A DNA stretch of 64,000 nucleotides from Candidatus Thorarchaeota archaeon (GTDB lineage Archaea > Asgardarchaeota > Thorarchaeia > Thorarchaeales > Thorarchaeaceae), in assembly GCA_048882325.1 (NCBI GenBank), contig JBHLRS010000008.1, forward strand, positions 51,530-115,529, given 5' to 3'. The position numbers and the translations under genes are program-made. Position 1 is the first letter of the stretch; every line of letters begins with the position of its first letter. Shown piece after piece: positions 16,226-26,916 of the stretch. The notes under the pieces are model-generated. The model was given only the letters and a program-made list of their open reading frames with translations, was not told the origin of the DNA and ran no database searches.

Positions 16226-16291
16226 CTCCAATTGTTCGGCCCCTTCGTTAGTTTTATCAAGGCACCATCTGTGAAAAACTCGGTCGGAATC

Positions 16292-16651
16292 ATGTCACAC
16301 AGACGTTCACTAAGATTCGCAAAAACGACCTGCCCTATCTGTGGCAGCAAGGAAGTCGCCCGTGACGATCACAAGGGAGACCTCCTCTGCACAAACTGTG
16401 GACATATCATTGTCCGAACAGAAACCAGATCTGTAGGTAAGTTTGACATTGCTCAACATATCAAGAGGAATGGAAAGATGACTTTCCCGATGCTCAAGTC
16501 AGCCACAGGGGCCTCAGACGACAAGCTCTTCGGTGTTTTACGAAACATGGTTGAGATGGGACTGCTCTCTGAGATTCAAGGACAGTACTCACTCACCAAG
16601 AAGGGAAATAGATGGTACCGTCAGAGGCAGGGACAGGAGTGGGGTTACTAG
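16292..16651 (+). CDS. TFIIB-type Zn-ribbon fused to a winged HTH
   Basis: CPICGS...DDHKGDLLCTNCG then L..MVEMGLL...YSLTKKG; no cyclin folds, so not TFB itself. Confidence 0.75.
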   Translation: MSHRRSLRFAKTTCPICGSKEVARDDHKGDLLCTNCGHIIVRTETRSVGKFDIAQHIKRNGKMTFPMLKSATGASDDKLFGVLRNMVEMGLLSEIQGQYSLTKKGNRWYRQRQGQEWGY

Positions 16652-16786
16652 CCCCTGTTGGGGCAACACCCAAGCATTAGTGGACACTATTTTTCACGAA
16701 ACAATCAGAATTCAGACTTAACCATAATTTAATTTTTTTAATGTCACTAAGAAATATTTAAAAATCCCAATATTCCAAGCGGAATC

Positions 16787-16897
16787 AGGATTCGATTCGT
16801 TGATTTCTAAAATCTTCAATCTCCCTCCTACCACGCGATTATCATGCTGGCTAAATATACCGGTATGATTCACACATACCGAATCGAATCCTATCTT
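16787..16897 (+). ncRNA. Candidate structured small RNA, copy 1 (strand inferred)
   Basis: Perfect 13-bp terminal inverted repeat AGGATTCGATTCG/CGAATCGAATCCT; loop motif shared with copy 2; TTTAAAAA about 25 nt upstream. Confidence 0.5.
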
Positions 16898-17000
16898 CTT
16901 CTTACTATTCCTCCACTAGGATTCGAACATCATTCTTGGTGATGCGACGGACTTTGGGTAGACCTCTTCGCATCCACATATGATTCAACGTAGAGTGTTA

Positions 17001-17831
17001 TTATGCTAAATCTTGGAACGCCTTTACGATCATCTCGCGCGAAGAATCAATATCCCCAATAACTCTTATCTCATCGAGGTTGATTTCACCTAGTCCTCTC
17101 CTGTGAGCCTCTTGGAGGACAGGCATTTCAGTTGATTCAAGTCCTACAAGATAGCCCCCAACTGCTTCGACTGCGAACGCGTCAGTCCCTATGATTAGAA
17201 GATTGAGCGAAACAGTGACTCTCCTCTTCCCTATCCCCAAGTAGCAGTTGGTGGCATCGAGTACAGCAAGATCAATCCCACCGATGGCCTCATAGATGTC
17301 AAGCAATGCTTTGGGGAGCTGTTTGTGGAATCTATGCTTCTTTACATCAGGAATCATACCAAGTAAATTCTTGATGGTAAAACCAAGATTCATGAGGTCC
17401 TCGAGTCCTGCATCCTCATATCTTCGCGGAACGTGTGTGCTAATGAATGTGTTTGGCTGTGAGAATATCTTGGGAAATGGTACACTTTCTCCAGCTATTT
17501 CAACATCCAACGTATCTTTGTCATCAGAGAGATTGAATGGAACCACCCGTTCATTGTAGCAGTCTTTCCAGATTTCTAGTCGTTTCAGTCCAGGACCTGC
17601 TCCGCTATCAGATTCTGTAATTCGAATCTCTGGCGCGTGATTAAACTTGTCAGCAATTTGTTGAACTGTCTTCACTGTCGAACAAATTCCAGTTTTAGGA
17701 TTGTAAATTCCAACTTTGATGTAGACAGGTCTCTCTTTGGTGTTGAGATCAATCAAATCCTCAATCTGTTCACAAGCGTGAGAGAATGAAGCACTGTCAA
17801 CCACGACCACGGTAGAATTCATAGAAATCAC
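17001..17831 (-). CDS. DUF362-family protein
   Basis: VYIKVG, ITESDS, FTIKNLLGMIP..KHRFH, AVLDA, DAFAVEAVG..LVG, AHRRGLGE. Confidence 0.75.
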   Translation of the reverse strand: MISMNSTVVVVDSASFSHACEQIEDLIDLNTKERPVYIKVGIYNPKTGICSTVKTVQQIADKFNHAPEIRITESDSGAGPGLKRLEIWKDCYNERVVPFNLSDDKDTLDVEIAGESVPFPKIFSQPNTFISTHVPRRYEDAGLEDLMNLGFTIKNLLGMIPDVKKHRFHKQLPKALLDIYEAIGGIDLAVLDATNCYLGIGKRRVTVSLNLLIIGTDAFAVEAVGGYLVGLESTEMPVLQEAHRRGLGEINLDEIRVIGDIDSSREMIVKAFQDLA

Positions 17832-17954
17832 TGCTTGAATTCAAATCGAGCGTCTCTATTAAACCATAAAGGACTAAGCAAAGTGAGCGCTTACACACTT
17901 AATTTTTCTAATTTCCTCTAAAGTAATCCTTAATATACTATAGACCAATTTACC

Positions 17955-18059
17955 GATAGGGTCTGGTACAGAGGGCTTCAAACTCCCCTCCTAACCACGC
18001 GAATACCTACAAAGTAGGATACCTACTTTCCCTTTTTACCTCTGCACCGGACCTATCTT
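17955..18059 (+). ncRNA. Candidate structured small RNA, copy 2 (strand inferred)
   Basis: ~19-bp terminal stem GATAGGGTCTGGTACAGAGG/CCTCTGCACCGGACCTATC; shared loop motif; inner hairpin AAAGTAGG-ATA-CCTACTTT; CTTAATATA upstream. Confidence 0.5.
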
Positions 18060-18124
18060 ATTCTAATGCCTAGATGTCGCCAAGGGAATGGATTCTGATT
18101 CTAAGTTTCCTTTTTTGAAATCTT

Positions 18125-18670
18125 GTGAAAGAGTTAATGTGCCTTCAGATGATTGTAGACATGAGTTTTGGGACTCGTGAGAGGATGTTCAAAGTGAGTC
18201 TAGGAACTATGCGAACATCTTGTATGGCAGTCGCATTAGGATTAATAGTGCTGATTGTAGGATTCATTGTTGCGTGGCTGAGTGGACATGGGTATCTCCC
18301 TTTCTTACCACAAACAGTGGTCATGCTGACAATGATTTTTTTTTGCCTCACCATGTTACTTTCCACAACATCAGCAATGGCAGGTACTGATTACATTGTA
18401 AGGCAAGATCTCTCATCAATTCCGGATACCCCACCTGATGATGTGTTCAGTCGCGTCATTCGTGATTCCGTGAGTGGAGAAGAGAGGATAATTCAAGCGC
18501 ACCCCAACTCATCAATCCATGAAGTATTGAGAGATGATTGGCCTTTCAGGAAGAAGATATCAGATGATTGGTACCTGATTGATGAGGATGGGAATGATAT
18601 CACCAACTGGCCTATTTCAAACTGGGATGGTGTCGCCATTCTGAGATACAGAGATCAGGATATCTATTGA
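18125..18670 (+). CDS. Hypothetical 2-TM protein with a small soluble C-terminal domain (possibly beta-grasp); start uncertain
   Basis: Two hydrophobic helices followed by a ~70-aa domain. Confidence 0.65.
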   Translation: MKELMCLQMIVDMSFGTRERMFKVSLGTMRTSCMAVALGLIVLIVGFIVAWLSGHGYLPFLPQTVVMLTMIFFCLTMLLSTTSAMAGTDYIVRQDLSSIPDTPPDDVFSRVIRDSVSGEERIIQAHPNSSIHEVLRDDWPFRKKISDDWYLIDEDGNDITNWPISNWDGVAILRYRDQDIY

Positions 18671-19827: not shown

Positions 19828-20994
19828 TCACTTTTTTATGACAAGCAGAGGTCCATCTATCTTAACAGGGGTCTCAGGTGGCAGGTCCAACAACCAGTCC
19901 TCAAGCTCCTCCATCTTCTCAAATCTCATTAGTACTGCTAATCGTTCTAATGGGAGAGTATCATATCGAGTGATTATTTTCTTCAATTGGAACATTCGGA
20001 AAGCTTCTAGCTCTGCTGCCTGCTCAGCTTCTTGGTCTTTAGAACGGTCAATCCATGGACTGTCCTTTTCAAAGTCCCAGAGTTCGACATTACCATCCAT
20101 TGACCCTGTGATGACATGTCGACCATCGGGAGTCACCACCATTGAGTGGACATTCTCAGTCGATGATAGATTCTGAAGCAGAACACCGCCCCGCAGTAAC
20201 CATACTCTTACAGTGCCATCAGACGACCCCGTAATAACATGTTGACCATCATTTGTAATATGAATCATGATAATGGACGTATTATGACCTGTCATCGACT
20301 TGATCAGAGTGCCGGTTTCCAAGTCCCACAAATGAACTACTCCATCCTGACCGCCTGAAAGAACATATCGAGAGTCAGCTGTCATAGCAAGAGCAGTCAC
20401 ATGACCTGTATGGCCTTCTAGAGTCTTCAACTCAATCCCCAATTCAAAATCCCAGATCCAAATCACTCCAGGTGAATCTGAGGTTGGAGCTTTCTTGCTT
20501 CCGCAGAGCATGTGCCGCCCATCTGGGCTAATCATTATGGTGTAGATACCTTGAGAATGTTCTAAATATCTAAGCATGATTCCTCGATCTATATCCCAGA
20601 AGCGAGCAATCCCATCATCTCCGCCTGTCACGATATATCTCTGGTCAGGACTCACGGCAACGGTATTGATGTGTGCTGAATTTGGCGCAAGGGATGTCTT
20701 GAGTGATTTTGTTTCAAAATCCCATATCTTCACAGCGAGGTCCTTGTCTGCAATAGAAACGAGCTGTCTGTCATCTGGCATCACGATTAGTCCATAGACG
20801 GGTCCACTATGTCCAACAAATTTGTGAAGCTCTTTTCCTGTTGTGACATCCCAGAGGCGTATTGTAGCATCTTGCCCTCCAGAAGCAATAGTCAGTCCAT
20901 CACTTGTGATTGCTAGTGACCAGACTGTGAACTCGTGACCTTCTAATTGCAGATTCGGGACTAATTCCCCGTCCATGTGCTCAGCTCCTCTCAC
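19828..20994 (-). CDS. WD40 beta-propeller with C-terminal PCI-like winged helix
   Basis: Seven GH...WD-type repeats; tail LKKIITRYDTLPLERLAVLMRF...LEDWL...KIDG; likely start ATG 20976. Confidence 0.9.
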   Translation of the reverse strand: MRGAEHMDGELVPNLQLEGHEFTVWSLAITSDGLTIASGGQDATIRLWDVTTGKELHKFVGHSGPVYGLIVMPDDRQLVSIADKDLAVKIWDFETKSLKTSLAPNSAHINTVAVSPDQRYIVTGGDDGIARFWDIDRGIMLRYLEHSQGIYTIMISPDGRHMLCGSKKAPTSDSPGVIWIWDFELGIELKTLEGHTGHVTALAMTADSRYVLSGGQDGVVHLWDLETGTLIKSMTGHNTSIIMIHITNDGQHVITGSSDGTVRVWLLRGGVLLQNLSSTENVHSMVVTPDGRHVITGSMDGNVELWDFEKDSPWIDRSKDQEAEQAAELEAFRMFQLKKIITRYDTLPLERLAVLMRFEKMEELEDWLLDLPPETPVKIDGPLLVIKK

Positions 20995-26808: not shown

Positions 26809-26916
26809 TGGTGGACCGAGCGAGATTTGAATTCGCGCTTCGTGTGACTAACACAGCGAAGTCTCGCGACCTTCTGGATGCAAACCAGACGATCTGCCAG
26901 GCTGATCTATCGGCCC
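26809..26916 (-). tRNA. tRNA-Ala(UGC) with a 31-nt intron at 53/54 (26832-26862); CCA encoded
   Basis: Acceptor GGGCCGA/TCGGTCC with G3:U70 and A73-CCA; D stem GATC/GATC; anticodon arm TCTGG-TTTGCAT-CCAGA; T arm GCGAG-[intron]-TTCAAAT-CTCGC. Confidence 0.93.

Follow-up and report, generated by a model that had tools for sequence, protein, structure and literature searches.

What are the two intergenic elements that lie on either side of a DUF362 gene in a Thorarchaeota genome, and why do they resemble each other so closely? Both are encoded on the + strand within region 16500-18300 of a 64,000-nt stretch of Candidatus Thorarchaeota archaeon (GenBank assembly GCA_048882325.1, contig JBHLRS010000008.1, positions 51,530 to 115,529), hereafter the window, and the gene between them is on the − strand. 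An earlier note, made by reading the letters alone, had listed six features shared by the two copies (a T-rich box, a TATA-like tract, an AGG opening a stem, a long stem that joins the ends, a pyrimidine-rich loop and a common 3′ end) and had proposed an undescribed family of small RNAs (sRNAs). All six are found in the sequence where it placed them. Our analysis indicates that the elements, referred to here as type A and type B, are very probably RNA genes, and that they form part of a wider family of sibling non-coding sRNAs restricted to the order of this Thorarchaeota genome. Its members share one architecture: the 5′ and 3′ ends pair in a closing helix of 13-24 bp, whose letters drift while pairing is kept, and this helix leaves unpaired a constant pyrimidine-rich strand with the core AACUCCCC(C)nUCCUA(A)CCA. 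As for what these RNAs do, the mechanism that we favour, at a probability of roughly 0.4, is that the siblings pair in trans with purine-rich ribosome-binding sites.

The type A RNA is about 115 nt long (16786..16901, +) and folds with −31.3 kcal/mol (z −5.8). Its 5′ arm (16787-16799) pairs with the 3′ arm (16880-16892) in 13 perfect base pairs, detected as inverted repeat I4. Between the arms there are a small hairpin (16802-16814), the invariant CU-rich strand CUUCAAUCUCCCUCCUACCACGCGA (16814-16838), a variable hairpin (16841-16869) and a CA-rich stretch (16870-16879), and the RNA ends with the tail AUCUUCUUC (16893-16901). Type B, of about 106 nt (17958..18063, +; −33.6 kcal/mol, z −4.3), is built in the same way, with a 5′ arm at 17958-17975, the invariant CU-rich strand CUUCAAACUCCCCUCCUAACCACGCGAAUA at 17976-18005, a variable hairpin region at 18006-18029, a conserved CCUACUUUCCCU plus U-tract at 18022-18038, a 3′ arm at 18039-18054 and the tail AUCUUAUUC at 18055-18063. 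Its closing helix (6+6+6 bp) contains a bulged G, a U-G pair and an A/C mismatch, one of each. The loop common to both ends in ACCACGCGA, at 16830 and 17994; these are the only two matches of that string in the window, where 0.18 would be expected. It carries CCUCCUA, in agreement with the CCUCCU that had been read in it. The 3′ tail CCTATCTT(C/A)TTCT is also common to A and B (repeat family D5) and reads CCUAUCUU(C/A)UUC as RNA. Within type B (18011-18038, +), an 8-bp hairpin AAAGUAGG-AUA-CCUACUUU followed by CCCUUUUUA scores as intrinsic-terminator-like, and a short type B isoform, with its end at the U-tract (18034-18038), is therefore possible. Type B also contains a GUAGG with two possible CCUAC partners, which would allow two alternative hairpins.

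Is it the RNA structure that selection maintains in these elements? Comparison of orthologs supports that claim, which had first been made on two copies only. The loop remains constant, the helices change and the TATA box stays at a fixed distance. In the type B alignment (A2; 21 sequences, 16-bp closing helix), 83% of the cells of the helix are paired, against 36-56% when the partner is slid; nine pairs have changed on both sides, and none of 500 shuffles reaches the observed covariation. The type A helix, kept in 13 orthologs that all belong to the genus, is more conserved in sequence than that of type B and shows wobble changes and one swap from U-A to C-G. The inner hairpins of both types have wholly different letters between species and keep their hairpin form. 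The same comparison indicates which strand is the RNA. G-U and U-G pairs are frequent in the type B and type C helices (type C being the further paralogs described below), and because the U-G pairs of type B would become C/A mismatches on the other strand, the + strand is taken as the RNA. The folds of the − strand also have weaker z-scores (−3.1 for A and −3.4 for B).

Independent transcription, which the earlier note had inferred, is suggested by an archaeal-type TATA box conserved at a constant distance, about −27, in the orthologs of types A, B and C, and each member would be transcribed from its own TATA promoter, with the C-rich strand as its product. In type A the TATA-like box AAATATTTAAAAAT (16752..16765, +) is centred about 29 nt before the first paired base, and type A orthologs carry TTTATTAA or ATTTAATAA at an equal distance. 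The TATA box of type B, CCTTAATATAC (17928..17938, +), is centred about 25 nt before the first paired base, and CTTAATATA is nearly invariant at this distance in the type B orthologs of the genus. Further upstream lies the T-rich box TTAATTTTT(T/C)TAAT, present at 16729 and 17899 (repeat family D2, 17 nt, 88% identical). Its type A copy, TTAATTTTTTTAAT (16729..16742, +), stands 58 nt before the helix, and type A orthologs are preceded by A/T-rich boxes of a comparable kind. The box may act as an upstream element of the promoter or, alternatively, as the T-run terminator of the preceding gene, geneX. Before type B, the box TTAATTTTTCTAAT follows a small hairpin, GUGAGCGCUUACAC (17883-17896, the whole at 17883..17912, +), and this hairpin plus T-run is kept in type B orthologs with changing stem letters. 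A simple terminator scan did not flag it. Judged by its form, the hairpin with its TTAATTTTT-type box may be the terminator-like end of a preceding transcript rather than a promoter element.

How many members does the family have? The two copies recognised at the outset are both real, and the count fell short: four more paralogs (type C) are present on other contigs of the same genome, which gives six members. Three of them surfaced as opposite-strand matches in a genome search with the loop complement, and a motif scan gave the fourth; BLAST of A and B against their own genome returned self matches only. The copies lie at C2:147054-147129 (+), C13:1-68 (−), C31:2054-2142 (−) and C41:23746-23819 (−), each with the CU-rich core of A and B. 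Type C RNAs are 85-100 nt long and closed by a stem, with a TATA-like box about 30 nt upstream. The core AACUCCCC(C0-4)UCCUACCA is common to A, B and C; the length of the C-run varies among paralogs. Type C adds a second constant block, GUAACAUGCCCUCA, and a 3′ end GCC-ACC-UU. Subtype C-i lies between radical-SAM and PhzF-like genes across genera, and its alignment holds 15 sequences from a dozen genera. The 14-bp closing helix of C-i is 97.6% paired, with compensatory changes in 11 of the 14 pairs, and none of 500 shuffles is as good, while the arms enclose approximately 50 nt with almost no variation in more than 10 genera. Changes on both sides of a pair are not seen in the inner hairpin of C-i: of its six pairs, three are constant and two vary on one side only.

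The core motif is found in 81 of 85 genomes of the GTDB family, each with one to eight copies; 314 genomes from other Asgard families gave no match. The type C pattern occurs in 40 of 41 sampled genomes and in all 16 genera of the family, with 1-7 copies and no control matches. We also carried out the search of Asgard genomes with covariance models that had been suggested as a check. Model R1 (subtype C-i) recovers all four type C copies of this genome and is matched in 25 of 26 genomes of the family, in the one genome of a sister family of the same order (1/1), and in 0/124 elsewhere. Model R2 (type B), which scores the type B element of the window at 119 bits (E 4e-29), is matched in 55/86 genomes and 14/16 genera of the family, mostly as a single copy per genome. 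Exact matches of a 20-nt type B motif come from Thorarchaeota metagenome-assembled genomes (MAGs) of 29 species. The loop pattern of A and B was found in 26 of 61 relatives (23 of the 27 genomes of the genus, plus two other genera), and its reversed control gave no match. The usual arrangement in the genus is one A and one B, co-oriented and 0.2-8 kb apart. Type A has been seen in this genus only, and for this reason it is probably a tandem duplicate of type B. One further locus, L015 (G020:C73:175-3193), contains at 1501-1519 an exact 19-nt type A loop motif in a GC-rich, unrelated context that lacks the closing helix; either divergence of a family member or contamination by another lineage could account for it.

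Could these elements be parts of neighbouring genes, or mobile DNA, instead of RNA genes? They might be the 3′ untranslated region (UTR) or terminator of geneX, leaders of downstream genes, miniature inverted-repeat transposable elements (MITEs) or attC-like sites flanking a DUF362 cassette. In the window this idea has some appeal, since both elements flank one gene, T-rich boxes lie nearby and several type C copies sit repeat-like at contig ends. The comparison between genomes makes it very improbable. Many genomes have A next to B without an intervening gene, at a distance of only about 210 nt in several of them; the DUF362 gene (17001..17831, −; Pfam DUF362, 7.6e-12) is accordingly read as an insertion, present in part of the genus only. 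It is outside the RNA system, and the pair does not flank it in a functional sense. Downstream neighbours vary while the RNA and its orientation persist, and each element has its own conserved TATA box. A MITE or transposon end was rejected, as the earlier note had also concluded, because the inverted arms differ between copies and covary, and because the orthologs occupy a single syntenic locus across genera. An attC site was discarded as well, no attC-like GTTRRRY cores being readable at the helix ends. Many type C copies in relatives also lie at contig ends, and for this reason type C copies seem to break assemblies.

The surroundings of A and B are themselves conserved. The ancestral order, found across the genus and in other genera, is a 170-aa gene, geneX, (A), B and a convergent WD40 gene. 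GeneX (16232..16651, +) encodes 139 aa, with an N-terminal zinc ribbon of the TFIIB/S27e type and a winged-helix-like C-terminal half; it matches Pfam Zn_Ribbon_TF (8e-8), and its PDB and NCBIfam matches are weak (zinc ribbon, winged helix-turn-helix (wHTH)). It stands directly upstream of A or B in nearly all loci of several genera. GeneX marks the locus and might conceivably be a regulator or partner of the RNAs. The WD40 beta-propeller gene (19828..20994, −; Pfam WD40, 5.8e-56) adjoins type B in many genomes, within the genus and beyond. Its product has 388 aa, and its top Pfam hits are eukaryote-like (WDR3, THOC3, CDC20).

Do the elements correspond to any RNA already described? The proposal that the family is new is borne out: cmscan against Rfam 15 gave no match for A or B in 16600-18200 even at E<=10, nor for type C at E<=1, and a literature search found no description of such Asgard sRNAs. 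ARAGORN reported no tRNA or tmRNA in the window. The sole gathering-level Rfam match of the whole window is a tRNA at 26812-26916 (−; 48.6 bits), missed by ARAGORN and, being 105 nt long, presumably intron-containing. Box C/D and H/ACA guides were rejected in line with the first reading: the sequences show no readable C/D (RUGAUGA/CUGA) or ACA boxes, and the snoRNA and sRNA models of Rfam have no match. A coding function of the type C AUG was set aside: there is no conserved frame, a stop follows after 3 codons in subtype ii, and the varying length of the C-run shifts the frame. Opposite the C41 copy, a long antisense open reading frame (ORF) continues in frame into a gene that, by eye, looks OsmC-like. 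A viral origin was rejected too, the six IMG/VR matches being chance matches in unrelated contexts.

The suggestion that the RNAs are shaped like Y or vault RNAs fared less well. True homologs of these eukaryotic RNAs would be bound by Ro60 or packed in vaults, and the likeness is one of overall shape: about 100 nt, ends joined in a long helix and a pyrimidine-rich internal loop, as in Y RNA (RF00019) and vault RNA. No Y_RNA, Vault or other Rfam model matches at E<=10. The TROVE domain of Ro60 (PF05731) had no match in the whole genome, which is 93% complete, whereas the same search was positive in Deinococcus radiodurans and Bacteroides thetaiotaomicron; the vault repeat (PF01505) likewise had no match in this genome and none in the control genomes either. 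Ro60-type recognition involves a lower stem with a bulged C, and no such conserved helix is present: type B has a bulged G or none, with varying letters, and type A pairs perfectly. The pattern of conservation, with a variable helix and a constant loop, is the reverse of that in the Y RNA stem. A Y RNA was thus rejected, and we regard homology with either class as extremely unlikely.

If not by these routes, how might the RNAs act? In the mechanism that we favour, the displayed strand would serve as a seed that pairs with purine-rich, Shine-Dalgarno (SD)-like stretches of mRNAs, and the pairing would lead to competition with the 30S subunit or to a change in mRNA stability. The closing helix would protect the RNA ends, each sibling would gain extra targets of its own through constant stretches peculiar to it (for B, ACCACGCGAAUA and CUACUUUCCCU; for C, GUAACAUGCCCUCA), and an Sm-like protein might bind B and C at the U4-5 tract that adjoins the closing helix. 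The CCUCCUA in the core equals the last seven letters of the 16S rRNA of the genus, GGAUCACCUCCUA, and GGAGG is enriched five-fold at −18..−3 of ORF starts. We prefer trans pairing on two grounds: a shared core with paralog-specific invariant extensions resembles sibling base-pairing sRNAs, and the variable stems, constant anti-SD-like motif, copy number and neighbourhood match the description of the bacterial cuckoo/CcsR RNAs.

Such sibling RNAs are known in bacteria. Qrr1-5 and OmrA/B are Hfq-dependent, with Rho-independent terminators and experimentally known targets; like the family described here, they comprise paralogs that combine an absolutely conserved stretch with paralog-specific parts, each with its own promoter. 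RsaE/RoxS and 6C RNA of Firmicutes and Actinobacteria, for which pairing with the G-rich ribosome-binding sites of several mRNAs is established or proposed, also present unpaired C-rich motifs on stable stems. However, there is no sequence or model match to them, and their motifs are short (UCCC or six Cs) and lie in hairpin loops, whereas the constant region here is far longer and has parts that are not C-rich, such as ACCACGCGAAUA. The closest resemblance is to the cuckoo/CcsR RNAs of Alphaproteobacteria (RSs0680, SmelC397 and others), in which variable stems surround a constant anti-SD-like motif, CCUCCUCCC, in the loops of 2-4 adjacent hairpins (PMC4615179). Both groups have several sibling copies per genome and stems full of compensatory changes, and both are frequently located in a conserved intergenic neighbourhood beside a small gene (PMC4615179; PMC8034643). 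The variable stems, the constant anti-SD-like unpaired motif and 1-8 copies per genome are thus shared features. Nevertheless, there is no homology: these RNAs belong to another domain of life and have archaeal TATA promoters, A and B stand beside the gene of a Zn-ribbon/wHTH protein and have no DUF1127 partner, and no Hfq is in play. Nor is there a CCUCCUCCC hairpin loop; the motif reads CUCCC(C)UCCUA(A)CCACG, and a strand of 20-50 nt (core CUCCCC..UCCUACCA) is open inside one end-to-end closing helix.

What do searches for partners of this strand reveal? Since rRNA models found no match in the MAG itself, 16S and 23S sequences with their flanks were taken from relatives of the genus. (CP070761.1, a 3.2-Mb entry named 'Thorarchaeota bin27 chromosome', likewise gave no match to the archaeal small- or large-subunit rRNA models.) Against 16S and 23S, each with its flanks, and 31 tRNAs, the best duplexes did not surpass those of shuffled queries. 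This bears on the idea of a guide or chaperone RNA, whose constant strand would anneal to pre-rRNA or tRNA while these are processed or modified. Guides typically have long invariant single strands; with these duplexes at the level of shuffled queries, no readable C/D or H/ACA boxes and no Rfam match, we consider such a function very unlikely. Past the 16S 3′ end of relatives of the genus (loci L066/L067), about 90-120 nt into the 3′ trailer, there is a hairpin CAGG-(G)AACUUUCCCU(UUA)-CCUG, whose loop resembles the CUACUUUCCCU block of type B; the resemblance may be due to chance or to a shared protein site. Genome-wide, exact complementary 11-14-mers were limited to the elements themselves, to type C paralogs, which have the same strand sense and are not targets, and to matches at chance level.

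Several of the results on mRNAs weigh against trans pairing. GGAGG precedes only about 7% of crude ORF starts. Over 5751 start regions, the distribution of duplex energies does not differ between the true strand and its reversed control, and 5′ UTR windows show no significant enrichment of complementary k-mers, some leader counts being inflated by spurious ORFs antisense to type C. Three perfect complementary sites of 12-13 nt lie before start codons, on contigs C53, C56 and C14. The one compared with orthologs, which is the best perfect 12-mer and precedes a VOC-family gene on C53, was rejected: the site is absent from all 16 alignable orthologous leaders. No conserved or specific mRNA target emerged from these searches. 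In addition, the length of the C-run differs between paralogs, and some 50 invariant nucleotides in C-i, together with an inner hairpin without double-sided changes, exceed the constraint usual for a seed. As an observation on the leader of the VOC/glyoxalase-like gene itself (C53:3576-3980), its orthologs (L109-L125) share a conserved promoter block, TTCACAATAGTTAAAT, about 35 nt upstream of the ATG, which is followed by a variable leader of about 22 nt ending in GTGATT.

These points lead to an alternative in which a protein, and not an RNA, reads the constant strand. The C-rich patches (GCCCUC, CUCCCCCC and UCCUACCA) might form a landing platform for a single-strand RNA-binding protein, for example a KH-domain factor (Dim2/Pno1, NusA, aCPSF1), or an Sm-like protein might sit on the U-tract, and the RNAs would then scaffold or titrate the protein in a ribonucleoprotein (RNP), as Y RNA, 7SK or CsrB do. 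The unpaired strand of about 50 nt in C-i stayed constant letter by letter in more than 10 genera although 11 of 14 helix pairs changed; the inner hairpin looks as if it were read by sequence; and two spaced protein sub-sites would tolerate a C-run of variable length. These three features fit an RNP or decoy at least as well as pairing, and no RNA target was found in 16S, 23S, tRNAs, mRNA leaders or genome-wide. Archaeal Dim2, moreover, binds the 16S 3′ end, which is the sequence that the motif repeats. On the other hand, the dispersed type C copies have no RNA-binding gene as a consistent neighbour, the genome search for TROVE/Ro60 gave no match, and the paralog-specific invariant extensions are harder to explain by one shared protein site. 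We hold a protein-binding RNP or decoy, the main rival of trans pairing, to be possible, if doubtful. A narrower form of the idea, which we rate as unlikely, is an Asgard-specific RNP whose CU-rich strand mimics the 16S 3′ tail and so binds or titrates a factor that reads this tail; a small-subunit biogenesis or initiation factor (Dim2/Pno1, Nob1) or a KH-domain termination factor could be the protein concerned.

Asgard archaea are the closest prokaryotic relatives of eukaryotes, and to our knowledge their non-coding RNAs are almost unexplored. The family described here is strongly conserved and apparently undescribed, and its structure and distribution are well supported: a multi-copy RNA family of the core genome, confined to one Asgard order and endowed with an unusually long invariant single strand. 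The covariance models R1 and R2 allow immediate annotation of these genes, which offer a handle on post-transcriptional control in these archaea, or on a new RNP. If the constant strand is an anti-SD seed, as we favour, the family would have arrived by convergence at the design of the cuckoo and RsaE-type RNAs of bacteria. Should the strand bind a protein instead, the family would represent a new decoy or scaffold RNA of archaea, and in the event that the strand mimics the 16S tail, a decoy acting on the translation apparatus in the style of 6S or Y RNA, of a kind not described in archaea.

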